Of a DNA stretch of 64,000 nucleotides, positions 1-24,885 are shown piece by piece. The position numbers and the translations under genes were made by a program. Under the pieces are notes generated by a model that saw only the letters and a program-made list of their open reading frames with translations, ran no database searches and was not told the DNA's origin. How positions within the stretch are numbered: position 1 is the first letter of the stretch; each line of letters begins with the position of its first letter. The stretch lies in the IMG/VR virus record IMGVR_UViG_3300044675_007236; one strand, given 5' to 3'. The stretch comes from a virus (taxonomy: Duplodnaviria; Caudoviricetes).

Positions 1-238
1 CCACAGATAGTCACCAACTTTTACGTCTTTTGCGGCTATCGTTATTGTATAAGCCATTTCAAGTCTTCTTTCTTAGTATCGGGCTCCAGCCGAGATACTA
101 ACAGGTGGTTCTTTTCCTTTTTTCAATGCGTCTTTTTCCAGCCTGCGGAACTTACGTTTCGCTTGCTTGGTTTTCAACTTGACATTAGGCAAATGCTGAA
201 TGCATTTGTCCCACGCTTCTCGACACAACTTGTACGGA

Positions 239-496
239 CTAGGTATTGCGTTGCTTTTTCCTGTGTTCTTGGCAGCACTCGCCGCTGCAGTAAGCGTTGT
301 TGTGTTGCTTTTCTTTGCCGCAGTTAAGGCACGGCCTTTTAGTTATCTCCGGTTCGCCCCGCGGTTGTCCGCCCCACCCATACATGCCGTTGTAATTAAC
401 CAGCATTGCAGCTGCCATCGCTGAGTGCATTTGCAGCTTACTCCTTATTCCAAGTCTGTGGTATTTTTGTACTTCTGTTTCTTTGTTTTCATTCAT
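239..496 (-). CDS. Hypothetical protein with C-terminal Zn-finger-like motif
   Basis: CLNCG...YCSGECC motif; start taken at MNENK (496), adjacent to the upstream stop. Confidence 0.6.
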   Translation of the reverse strand: MNENKETEVQKYHRLGIRSKLQMHSAMAAAMLVNYNGMYGWGGQPRGEPEITKRPCLNCGKEKQHNNAYCSGECCQEHRKKQRNT

Positions 497-848
497 CTTT
501 TTTAGTTCCTGTTTCAGTTTCTGTTTCAATGTTCAAATCTTCGACACTAAACCTAGGCGTTCTGCATACAGTGTAAAAATAATCGTTGCCCAGGTTGGCT
601 AGTCGGGAAACTGCTAAAGCCGTAATTACGGATTTAGCAAACCATACCGCCAACCTGGTGTCTTGACAGCACATGACAAGAGTGCACAGGAGTGCAACCC
701 AGGGAGACAGGCAAAAACAGCAAACCAGGAGTTCTCCTAGTTTACTTGTCCAAGTTTCTACTATTGCGCGGGGTGTCGCAAACAGTAAGGAGTGATGCCA
801 TATCTCGACGATTTGCCATGTTGCCAAGGCTGCAACGATTAGTTCCAC
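489..848 (-). CDS. DUF1360-like membrane protein
   Basis: Hydrophobic helices with WQIVEIW and LLVCCFCLSPWVA (CxxCxSxW) motifs. Confidence 0.6.
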   Translation of the reverse strand: MELIVAALATWQIVEIWHHSLLFATPRAIVETWTSKLGELLVCCFCLSPWVALLCTLVMCCQDTRLAVWFAKSVITALAVSRLANLGNDYFYTVCRTPRFSVEDLNIETETETGTKKDE

Positions 849-852
849 GTGA

Positions 853-987
853 TTACCCGTTTACTATTTTTATAGAAGCAAATAGCAACAAAAATGCCAT
901 AATACCTAAACCGATTTGGCCTGAAAGCATCAGATACAAACCAGCACACAGTAAACCAAGAAACCAAACTGCAATCGCGTTATCCAT
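853..987 (-). CDS. Small two-helix membrane protein (not in ORF track)
   Basis: Hand-translated MDNAIAVWFLGLLCAGLYLMLSGQIGLGIMAFLLLFASIKIVNG*; GAGG 8 nt upstream of ATG. Confidence 0.6.
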   Translation of the reverse strand: MDNAIAVWFLGLLCAGLYLMLSGQIGLGIMAFLLLFASIKIVNG

Positions 988-1207
988 TGTTATCATCCTC
1001 TGAAATTGTCGGAGGAGACCAACTATTTAAGCTAACTCTATCAGAGGGAGGTGCTCCTTCGCCTGCTATTAACTCTTCCAGAGGTTTGCCGCTAGGCACC
1101 TCGGTTTGATTGACTAGCAACTGCGGTGGAGAAAATGAGGACGACGGCCAATTCAGCGGTCGCAATTGTTTTCTCCGGCTAAAGGCGAAAGAACTTCTGG
1201 TCGGCAT
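980..1207 (-). CDS. Hypothetical Pro/Ser-rich protein
   Basis: Strong GGGGAGG Shine-Dalgarno upstream of ATG; tiles with neighbours. Confidence 0.55.
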   Translation of the reverse strand: MPTRSSFAFSRRKQLRPLNWPSSSFSPPQLLVNQTEVPSGKPLEELIAGEGAPPSDRVSLNSWSPPTISEDDNNG

Positions 1208-1227
1208 TGTGGCCTCCCCTCTGTGGG

Positions 1228-1374
1228 TTACTCTTTGTTATCTTGTCCAAAAACCATATTATGGACGGCGGCGACGGTCATTAAAAGACCGGCACCTATC
1301 AAAATTACGGACTTGGCGGCAAACGATGCCACCCCGATTATTGCTTTGGCTGTGAGAGACAGCAAGTCAAACAC
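1228..1374 (-). CDS. Small membrane protein (not in ORF track)
   Basis: Hand-translated from GTG: VFDLLSLTAKAIIGVASFAAKSVILIGAGLLMTVAAVHNMVFGQDNKE*. Confidence 0.45.
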   Translation of the reverse strand: MFDLLSLTAKAIIGVASFAAKSVILIGAGLLMTVAAVHNMVFGQDNKE

Positions 1375-1393
1375 AGTATCACTTAGCTTAAAA

Positions 1394-4300
1394 ATGACAT
1401 CCTCCTACGATTTGATTAAAAATGCCAGAATGACCTCTAGCGAGGTCATGGCAGAAGAACAAGCACACGATCCTTACGTTATCAGCGAAACTAAGCTGGT
1501 AAACGTAGCTCGGCAGATGGGCTACAAGCCGTCTGCATCGACAAGCCTTGTGGAACGCAGATTACACTTGGCGGATTTTATGCTGAAATCGTCGGGATAC
1601 CCGACGCTTCAGCCACTTCTTCCGCTACTGCTTTCCATCAGGGGCAAGCCCTATCACTTACATGATCACTTTCCGTTTGCTCCTTTCTTTAGAACGAGAA
1701 TGGCACGGACGACGCTGCTAAAAACGGGCCGTCAAGTGAGTAAAAGTACTTCACTGGCAGCTCAAGGTGTTTTGTTCTCAAACTGCATACCGTACTTCAG
1801 TACGCTTTTTCTTACGCCTTTGTTTGAAATGATCCGGCGGTTTTCTCAAAACTACGTCGCAGAATTCATTACAACAAGCCCTGTAGGCCGACTGTTCACT
1901 GACGAAACTACCGTGAACAACGTACTACAACGTTCGTTTAAGAATAGATCTAAGATGATCTTTTCTTTTGCCTACCTGGACGCCGAGAGAACTCGAGGTA
2001 TCTCTGCCGACAAAAACTGCCTCGTCGGAAATACCATGTTGGAGCTTTCTGACGGTAACTTTGTCGCCATAAAAAATGCTAAACCAGGCATGGCTGTACT
2101 TTCTACGGATAAGAATGGTACAATCAGTACCGATGTAATAACTGAGGTGCTGTATCACGGCGTGCAGCCTGTTTTTGAGGTTAAGTTTTCCGGCGGTGAA
2201 GTTGTACGGTGTACTGCAGATGAGCGATTTAGAACAGCCAGCACAAAACAGTGGAAATATTTGGCAGAGCTTGTACCAGAACTGCTCGAATTCCAAAACG
2301 GACAAGCGAAAGCGGAACCAGGACAAACCTTTAAGCTACCCGCAGAAACAAATGCTACTAGGTTGCTTACTAGGCGATTCCGGAATAGCTCAAGCTTCAA
2401 AAACCTCAAATTACCGAATATATTTCAGACACGGACTGAAACAAAAACAGTACTGTCAGGACAAAGCCGACACTTTGGCCGAGTTTGTTTCAACCCAACC
2501 GAAAGAAGTGCTCAACCGAGGCTACGGAAAAAAGTCGGTAATATTTGCTACTGTTTCAAGTCCTGCGTTTCTGGAAATAGCTCGAACTGTCACCGTCGAA
2601 GGCAAAAAAACGGTAACTACAACTTGGGCAAATCAACTGGATTGGGCGGCAATAGCTTATTGGTACATGGACGACGGAAGCTGCGGTGCTCGAAGAAGCA
2701 ATTGTGTTTTTCATACACAAGGGTTTTCAAAAGCCGAGTGCGAAATACTTTCAAGCCGATTAAAAGAGCTGGGCATCTACAACAAGGTGACGCCTGTAAA
2801 AAACAAAAATCAAGCCAGGCCGTATTACGTGCTTTGTCTAACTGCCGAGAGTTCTCGAAAATTAGCGCTAAATATTGCACCTTGGGTGCATCCGTCTATG
2901 CGTTACAAAATCCCAAGACAAAAAGAAACAGTAATCTGTTCAATGTGTGGATCGATTTTTTCGGGTCGAAAAGACCAGCTGGAGGCAAAAGAAGCTATTT
3001 GCAAAAAAGAAAATTGCAAAAAACTTCGACACAGAAAGTTGAATTTGGAATATCGCGAAAGAAAGAGAGCTGCGAAAGTTCGGTTATAACTTGTGTAACC
3101 TATGTCGGCTTACGTCCAACTTGGGATATAAACACAGCGAAGTATCATTCATTTTTTGCTAACGGTGTAAATTGCCATAACTGTATAGACGAGATCCAGG
3201 ACATGGATATCTCGTTTCTACCTGTTATTCACGAGACTATTTCTGCCTCACGCTCTTGGGGAATCAAGCAATATGCTGGAACTCCCAAGACACTTGACAA
3301 CACAATCGAGCGGCTTTGGATAGATAGTTCCATGGCCGAGTGGATTATCAAATGCCCTCACGGAGGCTGCGGTCACTGGAATATTCCTTCACTAGATCAC
3401 GATCTTCTCAAAATGATCGGACCGGTTCACGACGGCATTAGCGACACGTGTCCAGGTGTTATTTGTGCTAAGTGTGCAAAACCAATCAATCCAAGACCAC
3501 CCTACCAGGGCGGAACTGGACGGTGGTTGCACCGGCATCCCGATAAGCGTTGGAGCTTTGCTGGCTACCATGTGCCTCAGCTTATCATGCCTATGCACTA
3601 CGCTAGCCGCGAGAAGTGGCAAACGCTAGTCGATAAACGAGATGGCAAAGGTAACACACCTATCCACGTTTTTTACAACGAAGTATGCGGCGAGTCGTGG
3701 GACTCAGGTAGCAAGCTTGTAACCATTACAGATCTCAAACGTGCTGCGTGCCTGCCGTGGAAAAATACCATGGAGACAGCTCGAAATAACATCGACGGCT
3801 ATTTGTACCGCTTTGTGGCCGTTGACTGGGGTGGAGGTGGCGTTAGCAACGGTAAAAGCGATCTTGCGTTGCAGTCTTACACTTCGATTGCGGTATGCGG
3901 TCTTTGTCCTGATGGTCGCGTGGACGTTATTTACGGGTACCGAAGTATGACACCGCACGAGCACGAACGCGAAGCCGGTTTGATTTTGAACATCATGGGA
4001 GCTTTCAAGTGTTCTCACGTTGTTCACGATTACACAGGAGCCGGTACAGTGCGAGAAACGCTGCTAGTGCAGGCTAGGCTTCCTCGAGAAAGGATTCTTC
4101 CTGTGGCCTACACTGGGCCTGCCAAGGGTGGTTTGATAGGTTACAAACCTGCAAACCCGAAACACCCTCGAGATCACTATGTAATGGACAGAAATCGAGC
4201 TTTGAATTACTGCTGTCAATTCATCAAAGGTGGGGTTATTAGATTCTTCGAATACGACTACAAAGGATCAGATGATGTCGGTCTTTTGCACGACTTTTTG

Positions 4301-4525
4301 AATTTAATCGAAGACAAAGCCGAGTCTGGATCCGGCAGGGACACTTACAAGATTTTGCGAGATCCTGCCGGACCTGATGACTTTGCACAAGCTGTTACCA
4401 TGGGCTCAATGATGCTGTTCCAAATGGCAGGTAGGTTTCCAGACCTATCAGCCTACAAGGACATAGAGATAAGCGACGATGTGCTACTCTCTACCCAGGG
4501 TATTAAGGACATGGATTGGTACTAG
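1394..4525 (+). CDS. terL: Terminase large subunit (gpA-like), intein-containing
   Basis: Walker A-like LLKTGRQVSKST; Walker B reconstituted after intein removal (GISADKN|CIDEIQD); Cys-rich zinc ribbon CPHGGCGH...CAKC; nuclease motif VAVDWGG. Start moved to ATG 1394 (1430 and 1448 also possible) because 1166-1374 overlaps minus-strand genes. Confidence 0.9.
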   Translation: MTSSYDLIKNARMTSSEVMAEEQAHDPYVISETKLVNVARQMGYKPSASTSLVERRLHLADFMLKSSGYPTLQPLLPLLLSIRGKPYHLHDHFPFAPFFRTRMARTTLLKTGRQVSKSTSLAAQGVLFSNCIPYFSTLFLTPLFEMIRRFSQNYVAEFITTSPVGRLFTDETTVNNVLQRSFKNRSKMIFSFAYLDAERTRGISADKNCLVGNTMLELSDGNFVAIKNAKPGMAVLSTDKNGTISTDVITEVLYHGVQPVFEVKFSGGEVVRCTADERFRTASTKQWKYLAELVPELLEFQNGQAKAEPGQTFKLPAETNATRLLTRRFRNSSSFKNLKLPNIFQTRTETKTVLSGQSRHFGRVCFNPTERSAQPRLRKKVGNICYCFKSCVSGNSSNCHRRRQKNGNYNLGKSTGLGGNSLLVHGRRKLRCSKKQLCFSYTRVFKSRVRNTFKPIKRAGHLQQGDACKKQKSSQAVLRALSNCREFSKISAKYCTLGASVYALQNPKTKRNSNLFNVWIDFFGSKRPAGGKRSYLQKRKLQKTSTQKVEFGISRKKESCESSVITCVTYVGLRPTWDINTAKYHSFFANGVNCHNCIDEIQDMDISFLPVIHETISASRSWGIKQYAGTPKTLDNTIERLWIDSSMAEWIIKCPHGGCGHWNIPSLDHDLLKMIGPVHDGISDTCPGVICAKCAKPINPRPPYQGGTGRWLHRHPDKRWSFAGYHVPQLIMPMHYASREKWQTLVDKRDGKGNTPIHVFYNEVCGESWDSGSKLVTITDLKRAACLPWKNTMETARNNIDGYLYRFVAVDWGGGGVSNGKSDLALQSYTSIAVCGLCPDGRVDVIYGYRSMTPHEHEREAGLILNIMGAFKCSHVVHDYTGAGTVRETLLVQARLPRERILPVAYTGPAKGGLIGYKPANPKHPRDHYVMDRNRALNYCCQFIKGGVIRFFEYDYKGSDDVGLLHDFLNLIEDKAESGSGRDTYKILRDPAGPDDFAQAVTMGSMMLFQMAGRFPDLSAYKDIEISDDVLLSTQGIKDMDWY
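2018..3181 (+). mobile_element. Intein (388 aa) in terminase, inserted just before the Walker B motif
   Basis: Block A CLVGNTMLELSDG at 2018; block B-like VRCTADERF; block F TYVGLRPTWDI; block G FFANGVNCHN followed by Cys+1 at 3182. Confidence 0.9.
2220..3089 (+). CDS. LAGLIDADG homing endonuclease nested out of frame inside the intein
   Basis: Two LAGLIDADG helices (MLLGCLLGDSGI; IAYWYMDDGS), FHTQGFS motif, C-terminal CxxC...CxxxxC. Frame differs from terL. ATG 2220 has GGTG 8 nt upstream; TAA at 3087-3089. Confidence 0.88.
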   Translation: MSDLEQPAQNSGNIWQSLYQNCSNSKTDKRKRNQDKPLSYPQKQMLLGCLLGDSGIAQASKTSNYRIYFRHGLKQKQYCQDKADTLAEFVSTQPKEVLNRGYGKKSVIFATVSSPAFLEIARTVTVEGKKTVTTTWANQLDWAAIAYWYMDDGSCGARRSNCVFHTQGFSKAECEILSSRLKELGIYNKVTPVKNKNQARPYYVLCLTAESSRKLALNIAPWVHPSMRYKIPRQKETVICSMCGSIFSGRKDQLEAKEAICKKENCKKLRHRKLNLEYRERKRAAKVRL

Positions 4526-4540
4526 CTTTACGATTTCTCG

Positions 4541-5044
4541 TTACTCTATTTCAATCCCGTTAGCAGTGACAGTAAGAATCCTACCGTTGGGCAGCAGAAT
4601 TCTATCGTTAGGCTTAGCAACAAGATCAGCGGCTGGCTTTGTTTGCTCCTGCTTGCGTCGGTACCAGATAGCTTCGAGTTGCTCGCCGGTCAACTTTGTC
4701 GATGCAACCCACTTAACACCGTCCCACCACTCGTCGTTGGCTTCTAGAGTCTCGTGCGGATATTTTCCGAGCAGCGTGTAGCCTTTACCCGGCTCAGGCT
4801 TTTTGAGCCACCAGGACTGCGGCTCGTAGACTTGGCATTGAGACCAACACATGCCTCCGTCGCACTTGAAGTGGCCTCGTTCCCATCCAACAAGCATCAG
4901 GTCGTACCCGTCACCGTCGAGGCAGACCCAGTTTTGAGTTTTGTCATCCCTAAATCTAGCCACTTTTCCGTTGTTGGTTCTTACGATCTCCGCAACATCC
5001 ATATCCGTCGCGTCTCTGTAAAACGCTTCAATCTTTGTAGTCAT
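4541..5044 (-). CDS. Hypothetical protein (Trp-rich)
   Basis: ORF; AGGAG upstream of MTTKIEAF. Confidence 0.65.
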   Translation of the reverse strand: MTTKIEAFYRDATDMDVAEIVRTNNGKVARFRDDKTQNWVCLDGDGYDLMLVGWERGHFKCDGGMCWSQCQVYEPQSWWLKKPEPGKGYTLLGKYPHETLEANDEWWDGVKWVASTKLTGEQLEAIWYRRKQEQTKPAADLVAKPNDRILLPNGRILTVTANGIEIE

Positions 5045-5088
5045 CGTGATAATTCTCCTTATCGGCGATTGCCGAAAATAAATTTGAA

Positions 5089-5538
5089 CTAACGCATACC
5101 GACTTCTTTTCGGCTCGCGCAAGAACGCTCGTAGTCTCGTTTTTCAACACTAGACATTAAACCTAGTTTGTAGCGTAAGCGTTTAGATAAATCTTGCTTG
5201 CAGTATTTACAACCGTACTTAGAACCTATGCGAGCTCTAATGCTAGCAAGAACAGCCATGTACGGTTTTACATCTGGCAATAGACTGTACTTACGCAAAC
5301 AAAAGAAAGCGGCGTCCAAGTGGTTAATAACGCGTATTTGGTGGTAAAATCTAGCACTAGCTTTTTCAGCCTCTAAAGCTAGTTTTATATGTTTAATGAA
5401 CAATTTTTTAGCTTCTTTTAACGCTGTTTGCCGATCCAGCGATGCTTTAAAACTATCAGAATTACTCGAATCAATTTCAAGTTTAGTCAGGTTCACAGAT
5501 ACGCCAATCTCCAGAAAGGTTTTCGATATTACACTCAC
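5089..5538 (-). CDS. Hypothetical protein
   Basis: 149-aa ORF tiling the minus strand; CKYC motif. Confidence 0.55.
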   Translation of the reverse strand: MSVISKTFLEIGVSVNLTKLEIDSSNSDSFKASLDRQTALKEAKKLFIKHIKLALEAEKASARFYHQIRVINHLDAAFFCLRKYSLLPDVKPYMAVLASIRARIGSKYGCKYCKQDLSKRLRYKLGLMSSVEKRDYERSCASRKEVGMR

Positions 5539-5992
5539 ACCATTCAGCAGTTGCTTTTTCTTCGTTTAAATCAAAAGCTTCGCCGTATTTTTCCCATGCA
5601 ACATCTTCACATGTGCTCGGATCATCAGTTACAGCTACCAGCCGACAAAGTGCTAATCTCTCTGCCAATGCGCGACGACGGCTGCTAGGTACAGTTTCAG
5701 GTACGTATATTTCTACGATACCTTTAAACGAAACGTGCACCTTGATTTGCTCTGAAGGTTTTGGTTCGAACTCAATCAAATCTTCGAATTCAAATGTTCT
5801 TCGTTGAACTGTGGATTCTACGAACGCAGCGATGTATCCGCGTCGCAACGCTTCGACATGCGGTCCGGTTAGGTACCTGGAAAATACCAGCGAGATTGCT
5901 GCCTGGTAAACCATTGCCGGTTCTTGTTGCAGTAAGTCGGCAAGACCCAGCTTTGTGAAAATCTTAATTTCGTTGGTTGAAAAGTTACTCAT
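5483..5992 (-). CDS. Hypothetical protein
   Basis: ORF; start MSNFSTNE overlaps the upstream stop. Confidence 0.6.
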   Translation of the reverse strand: MSNFSTNEIKIFTKLGLADLLQQEPAMVYQAAISLVFSRYLTGPHVEALRRGYIAAFVESTVQRRTFEFEDLIEFEPKPSEQIKVHVSFKGIVEIYVPETVPSSRRRALAERLALCRLVAVTDDPSTCEDVAWEKYGEAFDLNEEKATAEWCECNIENLSGDWRICEPD

Positions 5993-6180
5993 GCTTTGTA
6001 AGTAATGCAAAAAGCAAGGAAGTAGCATAGAAACACTAACACGGACGCCATGCTGCCGATTGCGACACCCTTTAAAAATTCACCACGGTAAGCGTATAGC
6101 GTGGTGTTACCTATAAAAACACCAAAAGATAAGCCAAAACCGTATAAGTATTCATTCATATTTTTTTCATGTTTTTTCAT
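5989..6180 (-). CDS. Small two-TM membrane protein
   Basis: Two hydrophobic segments. Confidence 0.55.
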   Translation of the reverse strand: MKKHEKNMNEYLYGFGLSFGVFIGNTTLYAYRGEFLKGVAIGSMASVLVFLCYFLAFCITYKA

Positions 6181-6187
6181 TAGAGGT

Positions 6188-6472
6188 TTACTTTACTTCA
6201 ACTCCGTTTGCCGTTGCAGTTGCGAGTTGATATGTTTCATCAGACACATAGGAAAGAGAGCTGAAACCGCTCAGTGAATAGCCGATCAACTGTGCGAACT
6301 GTTCGCGGTCTTCGTTTGACCAGTTCATATAGCCTAGTTGATTCATATCAAAAGGACCGGCATCTAGTAAGAACTTTACAATCGCGTTTTTCTTGAAACG
6401 TAAAGTACCGTCAGTATCTTTTTCTAGCGGTTGAACCGGGTGTCTTGCAGTTTTGGCGGAAGAGTTACTCAT
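6188..6472 (-). CDS. Conserved phage hypothetical protein
   Basis: RFKKNAIVKFLLD...EQFAQLIGYSLSG, a motif recalled from small phage proteins. Confidence 0.65.
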   Translation of the reverse strand: MSNSSAKTARHPVQPLEKDTDGTLRFKKNAIVKFLLDAGPFDMNQLGYMNWSNEDREQFAQLIGYSLSGFSSLSYVSDETYQLATATANGVEVK

Positions 6473-7098
6473 GACGATACCTCCATCATTCTAATAACCC
6501 GGTCTTCACCTACGTATACACGTTGTTTTTCAAAATGTTCAGGGCTAGGTTTGATACCATTTAGAGCTAGTAGTTTTGAAAAAACTTTCACAGCTTCAGC
6601 TTTGTTTTTGCAAAGCTTAGCTTGCCCATCTAAACCATCTTTGCTGATTTCCAACACCACCCAAGCTTTGTTTTCTTCAACGTTTTTAGCAACTGAAACC
6701 TTGGTTTCTTCGATTTCTTGCGGCTTGCCCCAGACAGGATTTTTTACAATCTGAAAGCCAAGCTTTCGAAAAGCTTGCTCGCAATCAGTCTTTTTCATTT
6801 TAGGCGACAGTTTGTGTTCTTCGCATTCGTAGAAGCCAGGAATGTTAAAACCCAAACAGGTGTCCGGAATGAAACCATTAGCTGCCCAGAATGGTTTAGG
6901 TGCAACGCTCCACACTTCTTCTACCCAGTCTGACTCTTCGCCGTCCTCTGCATCGTAGTTAAAGTCATCTTCGGCGGAAAATATAGCCACCCATTTTGTG
7001 AAATCAGGCTTCCAATTTTTTTGTTTAACCCAATCGCCAGCTTTGTTTTTACGCAGCCCGTAAAATTCCGAAAACTGTTCTTCCGTAAGCTCAATCAT
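6469..7098 (-). CDS. Hypothetical protein
   Basis: 209-aa ORF, AGGAG upstream, ATGA-coupled to the next gene. Confidence 0.7.
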   Translation of the reverse strand: MIELTEEQFSEFYGLRKNKAGDWVKQKNWKPDFTKWVAIFSAEDDFNYDAEDGEESDWVEEVWSVAPKPFWAANGFIPDTCLGFNIPGFYECEEHKLSPKMKKTDCEQAFRKLGFQIVKNPVWGKPQEIEETKVSVAKNVEENKAWVVLEISKDGLDGQAKLCKNKAEAVKVFSKLLALNGIKPSPEHFEKQRVYVGEDRVIRMMEVSS

Positions 7099-7123
7099 GA
7101 TTTACTCCTGGTTTGTGTGATTA

Positions 7124-7480
7124 TCAACGGCTAACTGAAACGTCGGCTTCTGGATAAGCCAGACAAGCTCCAATATAAGATTTGATGAAAGGTATGAAAT
7201 CTTTGTACGTACCCCAACCATTTGTCGCATTAAAGGTTTCAAATCTAGCACGATCGCTCTGCATTAAAGCTAAACCGGCTGTTAGTGGTTCGATTAGCTG
7301 CTTCGCTTTTTCGATACCAATTTCTTCAGGCCGCCAAAGATGCTCGTATATTCCAGCTTCTTTGGCCATTTTTCCTAGGTTGTGCGTGATGTTTGAAGTA
7401 TACAGCTCCATAGTTTCTGCTGAGACATTGGCAGTGGATTGACCGGGTTTCGGTACGGTTAAACTAACATCTAAACTCAT
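7124..7480 (-). CDS. Conserved phage hypothetical protein
   Basis: MSLDVSL...NITHNLGKMAKEAGIY...NGWG motif; GAGGAG upstream. Confidence 0.7.
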   Translation of the reverse strand: MSLDVSLTVPKPGQSTANVSAETMELYTSNITHNLGKMAKEAGIYEHLWRPEEIGIEKAKQLIEPLTAGLALMQSDRARFETFNATNGWGTYKDFIPFIKSYIGACLAYPEADVSVSR

Positions 7481-7483
7481 GTT

Positions 7484-7669
7484 TTACTCCTCAGGTAAAT
7501 GTAAATTTGCTGTTTCAACTTCTTGTTGTGAGTCTAGCTTAAGTTCGATGTTGAAAACTTCGTCATCGCTTACTAAATGTCGATTATAGTAGTCGACGTT
7601 AATTAGTTTGCAGAGTTTTTCCCATGCAAATAGCATGTCTAACTCTTTTAGTGTGCCCGTTATTTTCAT
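7484..7669 (-). CDS. Small hypothetical protein (MKITGTL...)
   Basis: True start at the GGAGGTGGGCGAATG junction, not 7978. Confidence 0.65.
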   Translation of the reverse strand: MKITGTLKELDMLFAWEKLCKLINVDYYNRHLVSDDEVFNIELKLDSQQEVETANLHLPEE

Positions 7670-7827
7670 TCGCCCACCTCCTTTCTTGCCTTGGTTATTC
7701 TGCATTGCTGTCGGAAAAAAGCAGATTCCGCTTTGCCCCGAGTCGAATCGCGCAGTGTTCGGTAGTCCAGTTTTTTTCGGTATAGACTGAGCCTTTCGAC
7801 TATCTTCCCGGCTTGCCTGATCTTCAT
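7666..7827 (-). CDS. Small basic protein (MKIRQAG...RKEVGE), paralog B (not in ORF track)
   Basis: Hand-translated 53 aa; GGAGG SD and ATGA coupling at both ends. Confidence 0.65.
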   Translation of the reverse strand: MKIRQAGKIVERLSLYRKKLDYRTLRDSTRGKAESAFFRQQCRITKARKEVGE

Positions 7828-8012
7828 TCGCCCACCTCCTTTCGTCGCTTGCGAAAAATCCCCATCGCTTCTGCGTACCTATAATCAACAGCCTTGACGT
7901 AATAATCAACAGCCTTGACGTAAGTTGCTTTTTTGATTCGGTAAAAATAGCTATCTGATTTTCGCTCTCGATGCGCACGCTTCCAGATTTTTCTTGCTTG
8001 CCTGATTTTCAT
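7824..8012 (-). CDS. Small basic protein (MKIRQAR...RKEVGE), paralog A
   Basis: 62 aa; contains a 21-bp tandem duplication (YVKAVDY x2). Confidence 0.65.
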   Translation of the reverse strand: MKIRQARKIWKRAHRERKSDSYFYRIKKATYVKAVDYYVKAVDYRYAEAMGIFRKRRKEVGE

Positions 8013-8551
8013 TCGCCCACCCACTTGTGTTTTTCCCAAACGAGACGCTGTGGCGCGTGACCGCCGGTACCGTCTTCGTCCGTGTCCGGAGAATCCGAAC
8101 AACCGTAGTCACCGTCCGCTGTTGACCAGTCCGGACAACCTCCGCCAACTAGAAGATCAACATAAATAGTTTCGCCGCAGTGCTTGCACGTTGATTCTGC
8201 CCCTTCTACATTAGACAGAAAGCTGTCAAGAAACTTTTCGGCACCATATTCCTGCAGCCAACTCAACCAGTTTTGTTTGTCTTGTTTCAACCTGTTCAGT
8301 TTTTCGGTCTCAATGACTTGTGCTTTATTTTCGTTTTCCTGGCAGTAATCTTTAGCTACGTGCAGTGAATCAAAAACAGTTGCAGATGACAACAACGTTG
8401 GCCTTGGTATGTGTCGTTCGATACCGATCGGAAACACTACGGCGAATCGACCTTTTTCAGTCATCAAAATATGCCAATAACACTCGGGTTTATCTCGTTC
8501 TGCGAACCAATTCCCGCGATCAAAACTCCACACTAATTGTTTTTCAGTCAA
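8009..8551 (-). CDS. Hypothetical protein with C-terminal Cys motif
   Basis: CKHCGE...GGGCPDW...YGCSDSP; ends VGE* at the shared junction. Confidence 0.65.
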   Translation of the reverse strand: MTEKQLVWSFDRGNWFAERDKPECYWHILMTEKGRFAVVFPIGIERHIPRPTLLSSATVFDSLHVAKDYCQENENKAQVIETEKLNRLKQDKQNWLSWLQEYGAEKFLDSFLSNVEGAESTCKHCGETIYVDLLVGGGCPDWSTADGDYGCSDSPDTDEDGTGGHAPQRLVWEKHKWVGE

Positions 8552-8999
8552 GTTTATTCTCCTGATTTTCTGTGCCGTTTAACAACTGCGGCGGCATAAT
8601 TTGGTTGAACAGATTACCGTCCTCTTGCAGTTTCGCTCGTACAAATTTAAAGGTAGTATCAAATACAGCACCTTCAGTGAAAGTAGCCAATAAAATATTC
8701 GGCCTATTTGCAGCTAGCCAATTAAGTAAATCGTATGAATCTACCTCGCACTCAAAACCGTTTGTATCCCCAGAAAAAGGTTGACGCGTTACAATTTTCA
8801 AAAATTCAAATAACGCTGCAGCTTTTTCGTCGCCGTTGTCTGCCATGAACATAACAACGTCGTCTGCAGGGTAATCGCCGCGAAACCCGCACGCACCTAG
8901 TGCGATTATCGCTTCATCACTAGCCCGCTGTGCCCACAGAGTAGCGTCAAATTCGATTTCAAATTGACGGCAGTCGCTCCAGGCTTTTGCATGAATCAT
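8544..8999 (-). CDS. Conserved phage hypothetical protein
   Basis: MIHAKAWSD...EFDATLW...GFRGDYPADDV. Confidence 0.65.
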   Translation of the reverse strand: MIHAKAWSDCRQFEIEFDATLWAQRASDEAIIALGACGFRGDYPADDVVMFMADNGDEKAAALFEFLKIVTRQPFSGDTNGFECEVDSYDLLNWLAANRPNILLATFTEGAVFDTTFKFVRAKLQEDGNLFNQIMPPQLLNGTENQENKLD

Positions 9000-9011
9000 T
9001 TTTGCTCCTAA

Positions 9012-9431
9012 TCAAATACGAAGTGCCATTTTTTGTTCAACAGTCAGTTGTGCCAATGTTTCCTGTTTGATTTGGTTTTGCGACTTACCGATCAAATCAG
9101 GGTACAGTTTATTGTCAAAAGCGATCACAAAATTCTGGATAGCTTTCGGAACGTCTGGGTCCATAGTCTGGTGGTCGTTCCAAGTTATTTTGACCTCGCT
9201 TCTACCTTCAAAGTAGAAGATACCGTAGCCTGTATCGCGGTAACCTGGAGCGTATCTAACCGTGTCAACCACCAGCCCACGGCTAAGGTTTGGAAACTTA
9301 CGGTAGATTGCTTTTATAACAGGGCAAAATTCTCTGTTGCGAACTTCTCCGGTTATACCGTACACTCGACAGTAATCCGCAACTTCGTCGGTTGTGTTGC
9401 CCATTGACGCAAGAAACTCTGAAATTTTCAT
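9012..9431 (-). CDS. Hypothetical protein
   Basis: 139-aa ORF, GGAG-type context. Confidence 0.65.
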   Translation of the reverse strand: MKISEFLASMGNTTDEVADYCRVYGITGEVRNREFCPVIKAIYRKFPNLSRGLVVDTVRYAPGYRDTGYGIFYFEGRSEVKITWNDHQTMDPDVPKAIQNFVIAFDNKLYPDLIGKSQNQIKQETLAQLTVEQKMALRI

Positions 9432-9467
9432 TTTTTTCCTTTTGAGTTAAATGCTGTTACCAAGCAG

Positions 9468-9779
9468 CTAGCCGCCGTGTTTTTCGAGTAGCTTATAGGC
9501 CTCCGTGTGAGCCGCTTCCGCTTCATCGAGCGTCAACCAGCTTTGATCGATGTGCGAATACTCAAGCACCTGTCTAAGCACCTTGAGCAACCTTGGAGCG
9601 TCTGCCCAAAGTTCCGCGTTGGCCTTGGTCTCTTCGGCGGTAGTTCCATTCCCAGACTCTAGACGCCCAACCGCCGCTCCTAAAAACACGTCTCTAGCCT
9701 TGACCCGGTACGTGTTTTTGAAGTTGGTAGACTTCTCAACCCGCCACGGCCCCTTAGTAAATTTCGATTTCGTCATCAT
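9468..9779 (-). CDS. TxGPW/AAP-motif small phage protein, paralog 1
   Basis: FTKGPWRV...ANAELWADAPRLL. Confidence 0.7.
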   Translation of the reverse strand: MMTKSKFTKGPWRVEKSTNFKNTYRVKARDVFLGAAVGRLESGNGTTAEETKANAELWADAPRLLKVLRQVLEYSHIDQSWLTLDEAEAAHTEAYKLLEKHGG

Positions 9780-9806
9780 GTTTCCTTTCGAGTTAAACCG
9801 CCTGAA

Positions 9807-10115
9807 TTAGCCGCCGAGTCTTTCGAGTACCGCCCTGGCATCTGCAAACGCTTGCTCGGATTCCGCTGCAAGCTCTCTGTCTCGCAATGGTAAAGCGAAA
9901 TCGTGAAGCGTTCGCAGCACTTCCAGCATTCTTGGAGCTTCGGCCATTAGGTTTGCGATAGCCTCGATCTCCTCGGGCTTGAGTAAGTGACTCGACACGA
10001 CGGCAAGGCATAAATCCGCAGATGCTATCCGCTTTGAATTAGGGATGTCCCTTGCTCCTAAAACCCGCCACGTACCCTTAGTAAACTTCGATTTTGCCAT
10101 TTCATTTCCTTTCAA
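9807..10115 (-). CDS. TxGPW/AAP-motif small phage protein, paralog 2
   Basis: FTKGTWRV...AIANLMAEAPRML; tandem paralog of 9468-9779. Confidence 0.7.
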   Translation of the reverse strand: MKGNEMAKSKFTKGTWRVLGARDIPNSKRIASADLCLAVVSSHLLKPEEIEAIANLMAEAPRMLEVLRTLHDFALPLRDRELAAESEQAFADARAVLERLGG

Positions 10116-12346
10116 GTGTTAACTTTCAGTCTCGCGTAAGCTTTGTCCAGCATTTCTGCCGGTACAAAATCAAAAACCTCGCCTAAGTTTTTGCGTGTAA
10201 AATCAAGCCAACCTTTGTACATACGAATACCTTTTGGAATTTCAAGCTGTGTAAAGTGTTTAAGATAGTTCATGGCTATCTTGTCAGCACTGTGCGACAG
10301 TAGTCTTGGCTCTAGGTCTTCGTCTGTAACGTCGACTTCAACTACTTCAATAGCGTTCGGTTTGTCGTTAAACGCTATGAAGTAATTGTCAGCGCACTTA
10401 CGAACAGCTGTACTTAGTTTTTCAAGCTTTCTCGGCCAGTGATGCTTCCAACCGGTCAGCGGTCCCTCTTTCAAATCGAACCTAACGAAAAGCTGATGCA
10501 AAAAAGCATCGTATTCGTCGCGGGTAAGTGATATGCCGTATGGAGTTTTTTTACCGACTTGAGCCGTAATTTGAGCACACATAGCAATAGCCAACGCCCA
10601 CATAATTTCCATTTCGGGACCGGTTTTTTGCAGTGCCTCTTTGACGTCTTCCGTCATTTTGCAGTAGCTTTGTCGCGGACCTGGCGCGTCCTCGGGAAAA
10701 GCGTATTTAGGTGTGTCTCTAAATACGCTTTTAACCAGCTTGGCGTTGAAAAACTGAAATCCTTCTGGATCCCAACCAATTCGGTCGAGACCTTTAACAA
10801 CGCTTGGCTCTTCAAACTTACAAGCTACAAACAGTGGATCAAATTTTTCCATGCTTTTTTTGCCCCAGGTGTTTGCCTCGTGCGACAAAAAGACAGGAAT
10901 TTCATTAGCTAAGGCGAGTTCTACAAAGTACCTGAGCGTTCCTTTTTTTTCTTCAACCCTAAAAGGTATTTCATGACCTTTGATAATAAATTTTCCAATG
11001 TACTCGTGTTTGTTATCTGGTCTTACAACGATGTGACTTACACGCAATACACCTGGAAAACGTATTACGCCCTCTAAGTTAAACCACTTGCCGTCTCGCT
11101 CTACGACAACAACATGACCAAAATTGAAAATTTTGCCTGAACTAATGTCGGTTGGAACCTTAACACGCCTCGAGAAACCGGCTTTGACTTTAGGATCTAT
11201 GTGTTTTCGGACTAACTGCGAAACGCTTTCATTGTAATTGTCGCAGTCACTAAGTAGCTGTGCTTTCTTGTCGAACGACGTTGTTTTAAGCCAGTCTGAC
11301 AAAGCTTTCTCGTAAGGTTTGGCGTTGTCTGCTATACGTCTAACAATGTCTAGTGGCGGATCGTGTCTCAGCCAACTGTGCCAGTTACTAGGAGTAACTT
11401 GGACATTCTGTTGACGTAAAGATTCAGGCCCGACAAATGACAATTTGGCGTCCAGCATCATAGCTTGATGTAAAATAAGCGGCGTCGGATACTTTTCCCA
11501 AAAGATAGGCAACCGACCTTCTGCAATAGACCACTGGCGTTTGCAAAACGACCTTGGCGGTCTTTTCCAACCGAACATAGGAAGAGGTACGTCGCTGGTA
11601 AGAAAGTTCAAATTCTGCAATTGCAGGTAGTTGAGCATCATAGACGTTACTACTACAAACGGAGACTGAAACCTGTGCATAAGTTGCAAACCGGAAAAAG
11701 CAATGTTGCTCATGCAAAGTTTCATACCAGGAGCTATTTCCTCGTCCTGCGTTGTCAGCGTCACGTAACCTATGTCGACAGGGTTACGGTAACAGGGCAC
11801 AACTAGAAGCGACCTATCGCGGGTTTTAAACTGCGGCTCGTTGAAAAGATTGCGTATTTCTCTATCGCTGATTGTACCGTACAAAGCACCAGGGCCAGCC
11901 ATAAACCGTTCTCGGCTCATTCGATCAGGACGTAAGCCGTAGCGGTTTAGTAGCTCTGTACCCTGAACTGTAGGTTTAATCATTTCCTGTTGTGCAGTAT
12001 GCCAGATTTTGTTTATGCGGGCTTGTCGCTCGGTTACACGCTTAAAATCCTCAAAAACGGTGTCTGGCATTTTGCATTCTATTTTAGAATACAAGTACCT
12101 AACAGCCTCGGTCTGGGACATCTTCAGGCGTTCAGCCGCCAGGCTAAATACTGTTCCTGCCTTTTTGCACTCGAAACAGTAGTGCGATTCTTCTAAATAT
12201 TTGTTATCCTGGTGTATAGTCCAGGCGTTTTCGCCGCAATATGGACACGTTCCCGACGCCGTGTAGATATCGAAGGGTTCTAGCCCTATGTAAGGGGCTA
12301 TAACGGAATACGGCAAACTGGCGTGAATTTCGAGGAGACTAGACAC
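10112..12346 (-). CDS. DNA primase-like protein (CHC2-type Zn finger, possibly degenerate TOPRIM)
   Basis: CPYCGE...HYCFECKKAGTVFSLAAERLKMSQTEAVRYL resembles the primase Zn-binding domain; start set at GTG 12346. Confidence 0.55.
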   Translation of the reverse strand: MSSLLEIHASLPYSVIAPYIGLEPFDIYTASGTCPYCGENAWTIHQDNKYLEESHYCFECKKAGTVFSLAAERLKMSQTEAVRYLYSKIECKMPDTVFEDFKRVTERQARINKIWHTAQQEMIKPTVQGTELLNRYGLRPDRMSRERFMAGPGALYGTISDREIRNLFNEPQFKTRDRSLLVVPCYRNPVDIGYVTLTTQDEEIAPGMKLCMSNIAFSGLQLMHRFQSPFVVVTSMMLNYLQLQNLNFLTSDVPLPMFGWKRPPRSFCKRQWSIAEGRLPIFWEKYPTPLILHQAMMLDAKLSFVGPESLRQQNVQVTPSNWHSWLRHDPPLDIVRRIADNAKPYEKALSDWLKTTSFDKKAQLLSDCDNYNESVSQLVRKHIDPKVKAGFSRRVKVPTDISSGKIFNFGHVVVVERDGKWFNLEGVIRFPGVLRVSHIVVRPDNKHEYIGKFIIKGHEIPFRVEEKKGTLRYFVELALANEIPVFLSHEANTWGKKSMEKFDPLFVACKFEEPSVVKGLDRIGWDPEGFQFFNAKLVKSVFRDTPKYAFPEDAPGPRQSYCKMTEDVKEALQKTGPEMEIMWALAIAMCAQITAQVGKKTPYGISLTRDEYDAFLHQLFVRFDLKEGPLTGWKHHWPRKLEKLSTAVRKCADNYFIAFNDKPNAIEVVEVDVTDEDLEPRLLSHSADKIAMNYLKHFTQLEIPKGIRMYKGWLDFTRKNLGEVFDFVPAEMLDKAYARLKVNT

Positions 12347-22982: not shown

Positions 22983-23576
22983 TTACGCCGATTTGTGTTC
23001 TTGGTCTTTTTCAATCGTCGCTTTGAAGCCGAAGTTTCCAGCAACGTGATAGCAGATGATGCCTTCGGGCCGCATGAATCCGACTCTTGCGTGGCTACCT
23101 CCCATTTGTAGTTCTTTAAGAGCTTCGTACACTCGGGCAGTGTCGAACAAGCCCTGATACAAAATAGGAACCAAACCGCAGCACGAAGGCAACCGCTGTT
23201 GGTACTTCTCAATTCGAGGGTCTGCGGTTGCAATTCGTTTTGGCTCTTGACCAGGTAAACACCACCTTGCCACGTTGAAAAGACTCCATCGCTTTTCTCC
23301 GTTGGTCAAGCCATACCCTCGCTGGATTCCACTGCCCCACCATTCTCCGAAGTGCGTACCAGGGCCTAGTTGCATCAATTCATCGCGGTGGGCCTCGGCC
23401 CACCCTGCGAATCCGAAATTGTCGTCTTGGGGCGTGATCCATCGCGACCGGCTACCGGTCAAAAACTGACCGTCCTCGGTGATGCAGACACAGGCGTTGG
23501 TCCCGTCGATCTTTTCCGTAATGATGCACTCTCGAAACATTCGAGGCATTTTCGGAAACGCTACAAACTCTTTCAT
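22983..23576 (-). CDS. RNA ligase (Rnl2-like adenylyltransferase domain)
   Basis: Motif I ITEKIDGTN; FGEWWG; LFNV; VPILY; PEGII; FKATI. N-terminal FPKMPR typical of Rnl2. Confidence 0.85.
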   Translation of the reverse strand: MKEFVAFPKMPRMFRECIITEKIDGTNACVCITEDGQFLTGSRSRWITPQDDNFGFAGWAEAHRDELMQLGPGTHFGEWWGSGIQRGYGLTNGEKRWSLFNVARWCLPGQEPKRIATADPRIEKYQQRLPSCCGLVPILYQGLFDTARVYEALKELQMGGSHARVGFMRPEGIICYHVAGNFGFKATIEKDQEHKSA

Positions 23577-23610
23577 TGTGATTCTCCTAAAGTAAAAGTA
23601 AAAGTAAAAA

Positions 23611-23730
23611 GGATCGGGCAGGTTTGGTTACCTGCTTACGGCTCGCAATCACAATCCAGCCATCGAGTGTATCTGGGATTGCTACTTTCATATCCGCTAT
23701 CTGTCGTAGTTACCGCCACGCCGCCGATCC
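23611..23730 (-). ncRNA. Structured tRNA-like RNA, unit 1
   Basis: Closing stem GGATCGG/CCGATCC; D-like hairpin CGTGG-CGGTAA-CTACG; internal stems GCAATC/GATTGC and CCAG/CTGG; T-like hairpin GCAGG-TAACCAAA-CCTGC. Confidence 0.7.
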
Positions 23731-23736
23731 AAAAAA

Positions 23737-23818
23737 TTAGCAGAGGTTGGAACCCGACTCCAACACGCACAGGCACTATCTCAGCCCAGTTGTTCTTCCT
23801 CTTAAACTACTCTGCTAA
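23737..23818 (-). ncRNA. Degenerate tRNA-like RNA, unit 2
   Basis: Closing stem TTAGCAGAG/CTCTGCTAA; TA + GTTT-AAGAGGAA-GAAC D-arm; T-like arm GTTGGA-GTCGGGT-TCCAAC; non-canonical anticodon arm. Confidence 0.65.
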
Positions 23819-23821
23819 TAA

Positions 23822-23949
23822 AAGACCTGGCAGGATTGGTTACCTGCTTAGGGATGGTTACGTGCCAGAACGCCCACCTAGGGTAAATTCTGTACTCATC
23901 ACTCCTATTTTAGTCTATGACTGTGTGTAACTTCCACACCGCTGGTCTT
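23822..23949 (-). ncRNA. Structured tRNA-like RNA, unit 3 (paralog of unit 1)
   Basis: Closing stem AAGACCAG/CAGGTCTT (one mismatch); GTGTG-GAAGTTA-CACAC; TAAGCAGG-TAACCAAT-CCTGC nearly identical to unit 1. Confidence 0.7.
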
Positions 23950-24033
23950 AAGTTGATTAGGTCAACCACTCCCTTTCCAATTCACTTCGCATACTTGTTA
24001 CCAAATAATTCGTGAAATTAAGTCCGTCAACTT
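23950..24033 (-). ncRNA. Structured RNA, unit 4
   Basis: Closing stem AAGTTGA/TCAACTT; internal long hairpin TTCAC...GTGAA capped by TATTTG-GTAA-CAAGTA (GNRA loop on minus strand). Confidence 0.45.
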
Positions 24034-24090
24034 TCGCGAGAGCCGCCAGACACAGGAAATAGAAAAACTAGCTTTTAAAGTAAAGTTAAA

Positions 24091-24180
24091 GGACCGGCCA
24101 GGAATTACCACAATAACCTGCAGGTTCTCTTCTGGGTCACGACCTCCCAAAAGGAACACCTAGCCGTTAGACACCGATCC
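24091..24180 (-). ncRNA. Structured RNA, unit 5
   Basis: 5' GGATCGG identical to unit 1, pairing with 3' CCGGTCC (G.U only on minus strand); terminal CAGG...CCTG hairpin. Confidence 0.6.
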
Positions 24181-24210
24181 TTTTAACTTAGGCAATCACA
24201 GCCGTAGTGG

Positions 24211-24510
24211 CTAGACGCCCCAGTTAGCGTCAACCGGGATGCTGAAGATTTCCGCGTTTTGCGGGATATCGACAGGCTGGTCCAGTTTCTTCAATGTAAC
24301 CTTACTGCTCTTTGGATCTTTCAGCATCCCGTCGAACCCAATCTGCTCCCACTTGAAAACGTGTACGGCATTTTGAAGCAAAAGTCTACCGTTTTCTCGT
24401 GTCAGATCTCCAGCGAAAATCCATCCGCGATCAACTACGACCACGTGCCGGTTTCCGGTAGTTTCCCGAACAAACTTTACACCATCAACAATTACAGAAT
24501 CATTAGCCAC
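24211..24510 (-). CDS. Conserved phage beta-rich protein (DUF6948-like)
   Basis: VVVVDRGWIFAG...LLLQNAVHVFKW; family often found beside Gly/Tyr-repeat genes, from recall. Confidence 0.6.
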   Translation of the reverse strand: MANDSVIVDGVKFVRETTGNRHVVVVDRGWIFAGDLTRENGRLLLQNAVHVFKWEQIGFDGMLKDPKSSKVTLKKLDQPVDIPQNAEIFSIPVDANWGV

Positions 24511-24612
24511 AATAAAACCCTTTCAAAAGACTAAACCACTCTGACAACACCGGAAACATTCTCAGTGTCGCTGCCCGCCGGTTTAAAGCAGGCAGAATAA
24601 AATCTTACTAAA

Positions 24613-24885
24613 CTAACGTCTGCCGCTTCCAGAGACAGTAGCAAAGCCGTAGCCGCAGCCGTCGCCGTCGCCGTTACCGTCGCCGTCGCCGTAACCGTAG
24701 CCGTTGCCGTTGCCGTTGCCGTTGCCGCCACCGTTGCCGTCGCTGGTGCCGTAGCCGTAGCCGTAGCTGCCGCCACCGTAGCCGTTACCGTCGCCGTAGC
24801 CGTAGCCGTAGCTGCCGCCACCGTAGCCGTTACCGTCGCCGTAGCCACGACCTACTGGTTTAAAACTTTGTTCAACGTTTGGCAT
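24613..24885 (-). CDS. Gly/Tyr low-complexity protein 2
   Basis: Same MPNVEQSFKPVGR leader; FATVSGSGRR tail; GGAG SD. Confidence 0.75.
   Translation of the reverse strand: MPNVEQSFKPVGRGYGDGNGYGGGSYGYGYGDGNGYGGGSYGYGYGTSDGNGGGNGNGNGNGYGYGDGDGNGDGDGCGYGFATVSGSGRR

Follow-up and report, generated by a model that had tools for sequence, protein, structure and literature searches.

The 64,000-nucleotide (nt) stretch of Caudoviricetes DNA considered here (the window) belongs to IMG/VR virus record IMGVR_UViG_3300044675_007236, which has 175 kb and is 84% complete. Positions 23577-24210 form a gap of 634 nt free of open reading frames (ORFs). Inside this gap, on the minus strand, two RNA-like units (unit 1 and unit 3) share a nearly identical hairpin where a transfer RNA (tRNA) would carry its T arm. 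The question raised by this locus is what these units are and what the common hairpin stands for. An earlier note, made from the letters of the DNA, had taken the hairpin for a protein-recognition element. The explanation that we prefer, with a probability of roughly 0.5, is that units 1 and 3 are small non-decoding RNA genes built on a tRNA frame with a modular alternative elbow. The frame would consist of a 7-base-pair (bp) acceptor-like closing stem on which a 5-bp T-slot hairpin is stacked, together with a D-like hairpin and a middle domain of free form, and GCAGG-UARCCAAU-CCUGC would be a modular, non-canonical substitute for the T loop of a tRNA.

Structure of units 1 and 3

Unit 3 (23611..23730, minus strand) is a candidate tRNA-framed non-decoding RNA of 120 nt and unit 1 (23823..23948, minus strand) a candidate tRNA-framed RNA of 126 nt. 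Both belong to the family described below, whose covariance model, R1, matches them with 70.2 bits (E 1e-12) and 59.7 bits (E 2e-10), respectively. They follow one plan: a 7-bp closing stem, two linker bases, a 5-bp D-like hairpin, a long middle domain, the T-slot hairpin and the 3' strand of the stem. The closing stem of unit 3 (GGAUCGG/CCGAUCC) forms all seven pairs, that of unit 1 (AGACCAG/CAGGUCU) six out of seven with one A.A mismatch. The T-slot hairpins are exact matches to the search pattern, GCAGG-UAACCAAA-CCUGC in unit 3 (23618..23635, minus strand), where it stands immediately next to the 3' stem strand, and GCAGG-UAACCAAU-CCUGC in unit 1 (23830..23847, minus strand). A longer common element, UAAGCAGGUAACCAA[A/U]CCUGCC, is identical at 22 of 23 positions in the two units and adjoins the 3' stem strand in both. 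The shared hairpin GCAGG-UAACCAA(A/U)-CCUGC in front of the 3' stem strand, as first described in the earlier note, was confirmed on the minus strand. The same holds for the 5-bp D-like hairpins, said to differ in sequence and to agree in shape (CGUGG/CUACG and GUGUG/CACAC). The one of unit 3 reads CGUGG-CGGUAA-CUACG (23705..23720, minus strand); its G.U pair exists only on the minus strand, and its slot and loop type recur in frame-mates. The one of unit 1 reads GUGUG-GAAGUUA-CACAC (23923..23939, minus strand).

The 18-mer pattern of the T-slot hairpin has two exact matches in the window, where 0.07 are expected, and none of 100 shuffles reached two. A third copy with one mismatch and the loop UAGCCAAU is found at genome positions 4672-4689 on the minus strand, in a 72-nt unit within the phage tRNA array; the fold of this unit is 4.3 standard deviations (SD) better than shuffles. 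R1 has exactly three matches in the searched parts of this genome (the window, 1-12000 and 58000-68000), and a pattern search of the whole record led to the same three places.

The closing stems of units 1 and 3 do differ, as had been noticed. The internal sequences, also described as different, retain some likeness: aligned globally, the two middles score about 2.9 SD higher than shuffles, and units 1 and 3 may be old paralogues. A recent duplication had been judged an unsuitable explanation, and this judgement stood, the same hairpin occupying the same slot in many otherwise dissimilar RNAs of unrelated phage contigs with closing stems that covary.

One arrangement typical of tRNAs is kept in the frame: the 3' strand of a 7-bp acceptor stem is immediately preceded by a 5-bp T stem. 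The assignment of the hairpin to the T-arm position of a tRNA-like RNA is borne out by this arrangement and by a predicted tRNA-Gln of the same phage, whose acceptor and T stems are identical to those of unit 3 and whose loop is canonical. Other tRNA features are absent. The T loop is an 8-nt UARCCAAU and not a 7-nt UUCRANN, the D-loop G18G19 is missing, and the D-like loops are either short (5-8 nt, many of them CGNAA, CGNNAA or CGNNUA) or devoid of GG. No anticodon-arm cloverleaf was recognised by tRNA finders or Rfam. In the window ARAGORN called a single tRNA, a tRNA-Met, and neither unit 1 nor unit 3, while Rfam gave no minus-strand match at the gathering score and at E<=10 and no tRNA match in 23000-24800.

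A family of RNAs on a tRNA frame

IMG/VR was scanned with the 18-mer, R and W being allowed and the T stem being fixed by the pattern, and neighbouring genes were recorded, a search that the earlier note had proposed. The motif is present in 57 loci. In most of them the 7 nt that come after the hairpin pair with a 7-mer located 60-200 nt upstream, and this 7-mer in turn precedes a recognisable 5' signature. R1 gives 33 full-length hits of at least 45 bits among the 57 loci. When 27 distinct units are aligned, pairing in the closing stem amounts to 98.9%; both partners vary in six of the seven pairs, the innermost G-C being the one that never changes. The covariation score was reached by none of 500 shuffles, and no slid register came close to it, a test which is overstated by the closing stems having been located partly through pairing. 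The independent 5' signature speaks for the stems being real.

Two main subtypes were distinguished. Subtype A, which includes this phage, starts with GGAUCGG-CG-GCGUGG and ends with CCGAUCC-UUUU. The closing stems of subtype B are quite dissimilar in sequence, and after each comes UGGCGGAA..ACGC, which is the acceptor and D-arm pattern of class II tRNAs without the D-loop GG. Members are found in lytic-type large phages and in proviruses, in records that differ widely in size and neighbouring genes. Together they make up a widespread family of tRNA-framed RNAs whose hallmark is the T-slot hairpin and which no Rfam model matches. No account of the UARCCAAU loop was found in the literature; tRNA-like candidates in IMG/VR in general were noted by one survey (PMC10690425).

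The RNA strand is the prevailing coding strand in 30 of the 33 loci, and several stems hold G.U pairs that are A.C mismatches on the opposite strand. Because of these two observations the element is regarded as RNA rather than as a DNA site. It is very improbable that the element acts as DNA (an operator, a recombination site or a homing site) or that the units are decaying tRNA pseudogenes, even with an 18-mer that is an inverted repeat and frames that clearly descend from tRNA genes. Strand-specific orientation and G.U pairs argue against both proposals, as do the distant 7-bp stem kept by compensatory changes and the hairpin kept across dissimilar contigs. The loop types, moreover, are discrete and recurrent, unlike the products of random decay.

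Bacterial genomes contributed 53 matches, most of which lie in GltB coding sequence or group II introns or are unclear. About four of the 53 are family members, at least two of these matching viral contigs. The 19-mer matches in L151, L164, L172, L174, L179 and L185 were rejected as a recurrent false positive, being coding sequence of a conserved glutamate synthase motif (…FAQVTNPAIDP…), as judged from their shared flanks. Among cultured phages, no real match to the 701-nt region or to a 70-nt member was found in the phage record collection. Freeing the T stem on the CCGAUCC frame gained only one mismatched variant. The model search retrieved in L017 a compensated T stem, GCGGG/CCCGC, on which the loop is kept (GCGGG-UAACCAAA-CCCGC).

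Several departures from the two subtypes were observed. A third frame subtype, with a GGNGCGG-CACGCAUGAGC start and the same terminal hairpin, is represented by L157:4706-4830 and L042:1578-1727. The L157 copy stands on an 8-kb scaffold of Thermomonas fusca DSM 15424, i.e. in the genome of a cultured strain, and its RNA is opposite to most neighbouring ORFs. The smallest member measures 66 nt (L036:6340-6405). Copies of the hairpin alone, with the 5-bp stem extended to 8-12 bp and no tRNA-like frame, occur at L055:1512-1529 and L013:1403-1420 and in L052/L057 and L021, one of them in a 219-kb viral contig.

Interchangeable loops in the T slot

A frame scan in which the T stem and the 3' acceptor strand were fixed and the loop was free (GCAGG-loop-CCUGC-CCGAUCC) returned at least 119 stretches. 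The counts of units that follow, here and for the U tract, refer to the matches listed, among which 88 distinct closable units were found. The canonical UUCRANN loop is carried by 36 units, eight of which ARAGORN called tRNA, and UGNRANN by 23 with one such call. UARCCAAY-like loops are present in 20 units and other loops in nine, none of them called tRNA. UARCCAAU is the commonest 8-nt version, and several loop types occur within single genomes.

The exchange of loops is best followed in a ~140-nt RNA with orthologues in L008, L023, L039, L226, L233, L235 and L301. Their near-identical bodies carry four T loops (UAGCCAAU, UGAAAAU, UGCGAUU and UUCGAAU), and a GGG-containing D loop accompanies only the UUCGAAU version. 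Pairwise differences between the seven are 31% for the T loop and 27% for the D loop, as against 7.6% for the remainder. The D and T loops of this RNA thus change about four times faster than the body, the reverse of real tRNAs, whose D and T loops are their most conserved parts. The T-slot hairpin behaves as one of a few interchangeable elbow modules.

The loop type is coupled to other features of the units. GGGA-type D loops were counted in 9 of 30 canonical units and in none of 39 non-canonical ones (p 2.5e-4). Within subtype B, a D-loop GG is present in all three canonical tandem partners vs none of the ten UAACCAAU units (p 0.0035). Among non-canonical units, 42 of 43 have a U tract immediately behind the stem, vs 13 of 36 canonical ones (p 9e-10); these p-values are all upper bounds on significance. 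The association of UARCCAAU with a D-like loop lacking a G18G19-type GG suggests an elbow that is rebuilt and not merely decayed. Such a remodelled elbow would keep a stable acceptor/T minihelix and would remove the identity of a tRNA for translation and for elbow-reading factors. The variable middle would then be the carrier of the RNA's activity, whatever that is.

Tandem pairs were seen in three subtype B proviruses (L058:4656-4902, L030:5732-6055, L012:5646-6034). In each, a UAACCAAU unit without D-loop GG stands just upstream of a ~115-nt tRNA-like partner that has UUCGAAU or UUCGACU together with a GG D loop; ARAGORN calls neither member tRNA.

An 8-nt, exposed loop of conserved sequence could also be thought of as a partner for pairing in trans, through a kissing contact with another RNA. 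The target would be the tRNA D-loop sequence UUGGUUA, which is common in tRNAs and complementary to UAACCAAU, or a messenger RNA. The frequent position of non-canonical units beside units with a canonical elbow would suit this idea. Inspection of the units and of their tandem partners revealed no conserved complement, however, and the complementarity of units 1 to 4 with the phage genome, beyond self and family copies, does not exceed 12 nt and is not clearly above shuffled controls. With the D-loop GG of folded tRNAs being already engaged, pairing in trans appears quite improbable.

A bolder form of the preferred explanation can be put forward only tentatively. UARCCAAU and its short GG-less D-like loop might together form a previously undescribed, self-contained alternative elbow. 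Phages would switch it with UGNRANN and canonical elbows under diversifying selection because a host or rival factor reads or attacks elbows, and the module would have been reused in domain 1 of one lineage of group II introns.

Neighbouring genes and a possible protein partner

A different account of the recurrent loop, and the one favoured by the earlier note, is that the hairpin is a sequence-specific site for one host or phage protein recruited by all members. Loop and stem are nearly invariant across RNAs that otherwise differ, and the hairpin also stands alone on long perfect stems, for example in L055 and L013. The loop also shows R-C-C-A, the sequence of the tRNA 3' end that many conserved enzymes read, a resemblance from which recognition by such an enzyme could be imagined. 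The surroundings of the family do not point to a partner. No protein gene is common to the subtype B neighbourhoods. Those of subtype A contain generic replication and recombination genes (RecT, a PD-(D/E)XK nuclease, DNA polymerase A, a clamp loader), near subtype A only. Members occur in very varied phages, lytic-type ones and differing proviruses; any partner would therefore need a very wide distribution. Further points against such a site are the other loops found on orthologues of one RNA and the coexistence of several loop types in single genomes.

The RNA ligase encoded next to unit 3 was tried as a partner and rejected, 77 loci with ligase homologues having no UARCCAAU-type hairpin, no R1 match and almost no tRNAs. 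The link with the ligase is local only, and the ligase is not a conserved partner. With no co-occurring protein gene in subtype B, the ligase unlinked in 77 loci and orthologues that swap the loop, the view of the hairpin as a protein-recognition element is somewhat disfavoured and, as an explanation of the whole family, is possible but unlikely; if there is a partner, it may be a host protein.

The ligase gene itself (PF09414, 197 aa; 22983..23576, minus strand; Pfam E 5e-13, PHROG 548) lies just downstream of unit 3 and borders the gap, an unassigned ORF flanking the other side. It is 96.7% identical in nucleotide sequence to a gene in L061, an otherwise unrelated 43-kb viral contig with which nothing else is shared, and from this comparison it looks like a recently exchanged single-gene cassette. 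The similarity (22983-23588 / L061:2989-3588) extends from 12 nt upstream of the start codon to the vicinity of the stop.

Comparison with known RNAs

Stable RNA species 1 of phage T4 (rnaC, 139 nt) resembles the units in being a phage non-decoding small RNA in line with tRNA genes, with an end-to-end stem and a T arm by the 3' strand, according to the record annotation and to its fold. It differs in its canonical T arm, CCGGG-UUCGAAU-CCCGG; T4 rnaD has no such arm, and R1 has no match in the T4 tRNA region. The units fit the rnaC type of phage tRNA-cluster stable RNA, which is a descriptive class and not a sequence family. Class II tRNAs (Leu/Ser type, RF00005) share with the family a 7-bp acceptor stem, two linker bases and a 5-bp T stem that leads directly into the 3' acceptor strand; subtype B also has their UGGCGGAA..ACGC D arm. 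In contrast to these tRNAs, the family has no anticodon arm, an 8-nt UARCCAAU loop, a D loop without G18G19 and no ARAGORN or Rfam match.

C4 antisense RNA of P1/P7 and CI RNA of P4 (RF01695) are phage regulatory RNAs cut out by RNase P. The likeness of the units to them would lie in the idea alone of a tRNA-like closing helix through which a small phage RNA is processed. This assignment was rejected, there being no Rfam match at E<=10 and a complementarity to the phage genome of at most 12 nt, not clearly above shuffles. YrlA and bacterial Y RNAs are likewise non-decoding and have acceptor-, D- and T-like arms; the YrlA module reportedly keeps a canonical T loop. They were rejected as well, with no Rfam match at E<=10 and no TROVE/Ro60 gene in the 175-kb record (84% complete; controls matched). 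VIPR vrRNA, whose hallmark is alternating GGY/NN repeats (bioRxiv 10.64898/2026.04.26.720920), was set aside on visual inspection: in the G-rich 5' part GGAUCGGCGGCGUGG the GGs are spaced by 3, 5 and 3, and a 5-nt period is absent.

The same hairpin also appears in a lineage of group II introns. An identical 19-mer, GCAGG-UARCCAAW-CCUGC-C, is located in domain 1, about 75 nt from the intron 5' end and 5' of the RF02005 region, the RF02005 match beginning inside the hairpin loop. It is found in about 10 bacterial genomes of several phyla (contigs L147, L150, L155, L159, L161, L163, L167, L176, L184 and L190) with the same A/G and A/U variants, which are fixed by the search pattern, and its stem is invariant there too. 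A conserved complement to the loop was sought downstream in the introns as a kissing partner and none was found. The context is unrelated to that of the units: no intron family matches the window and only the 19-nt hairpin is shared. The match may reflect chance or a shared autonomous hairpin motif. As to chance, one lineage counts as one event, and roughly ten random hits were expected from the scan.

Transcription and 3' ends

The stretch is found at 100% identity in lake-water metatranscriptome contigs, 24 RNA runs holding it, and is likely transcribed. Cover is patchy, and one RNA-library contig stops 1 nt after unit 3, a weak indication of a transcript end. Units 1, 2 and 3 are separated only by UUU (U3) and UUUUU (U5), and because of these 3-5-nt spacers they would come from one minus-strand precursor. 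The closing stem would be the place where the units are released or end, through tRNA-processing enzymes, at the U tract, or both.

The U tracts raise a further alternative, in which the closing stem, the coaxial T-slot hairpin and the U tract make up a compound intrinsic terminator or 3'-end stabiliser, the likeness to tRNA being ancestry only. The strong bias of U tracts towards non-canonical units given above agrees with this proposal, and so does, weakly, the RNA-library contig ending 1 nt past unit 3. A consensus scan lists the unit 1 hairpin and its tail as terminator-like. The layout of the locus fits it poorly: U3 and U5 spacers leave no room for promoters, and units 2 and 3, like the ligase gene, would stay silent if termination were efficient. 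Terminator and promoter scans were not above shuffles (two terminator sites vs 1.4), and subtype B units have no U tails. A role as terminator is improbable on balance.

Several points also weigh against units 1 and 3 being RNA genes with a modular elbow. The invariance of the T stem is largely a product of search patterns that fix the stem, and the loop-coupling counts come from related sequences, so that the Fisher tests overstate independence. A purely structural module leaves unexplained why the exact loop recurs on unrelated frames amid tolerated alternatives. A U tract after the stem suits a terminator-type 3' end as well as tRNA-type processing. The metatranscriptome data, finally, consist of contigs only, which are silent on strand, ends, processing and CCA, with DNA carry-over being possible.

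Significance of an exchangeable elbow

The elbow formed by the D and T loops is among the most conserved tertiary elements of RNA, and its readers include RNase P, the ribosome, T-box leaders and processing enzymes. In the large set of phage RNAs considered here the tRNA frame is kept and the elbow is exchanged among a few discrete versions. What is new are the three loop classes on one frame, the loop swaps in one orthologous RNA and the coupling of loop type to D loop and U tract. If the module folds alone, it would be a new recurrent hairpin motif and would account for many 'intergenic' stretches of large phages missed by tRNA finders and Rfam. It would also offer a natural counterpart to the engineered tRNA scaffolds used for RNA expression, and the 66-nt member would be small enough for structure determination. 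If the fast loop turnover results from conflict with an elbow-reading factor, it would constitute an unrecognised layer of phage-host interplay.

Other features of the locus

In the 5' to 3' direction of the minus strand, the order within the gap is an upstream frame-mate (24091-24180), unit 1, unit 2, unit 3, a U-rich spacer and the ligase start. Unit 2 (23736..23819, minus strand), delineated from sequence and fold, is an 84-nt RNA-like unit with a 10-bp closing stem. It has no R1 match and a different T-slot loop, which places it outside the family. Its plus strand gives a sub-threshold match to skipping-rope RNA (RF02924; 20.7 bits vs a gathering score of 36.7), and, the 10-bp closing stem being alike on both strands, unit 2 may be encoded on either strand. 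The frame-mate (24091..24180, minus strand) is closed by GGAUCGG/CCGGUCC, and its T-slot stem has 4 bp and bears a 14-nt loop; it has no R1 match and is likewise outside the family. The U-rich spacer (23577..23610, minus strand) comprises, besides the ligase ribosome-binding site, three CUUUUA repeats, and a CUUUA-rich stretch resembling these repeats also follows the frame-mate. Outside the window, ARAGORN predicted a tRNA whose CUA anticodon would decode the stop codon UAG (G000:C1:1206-1278, minus strand). This suggests suppression or recoding in the phage, yet the ORFs of the window look intact under table 11.
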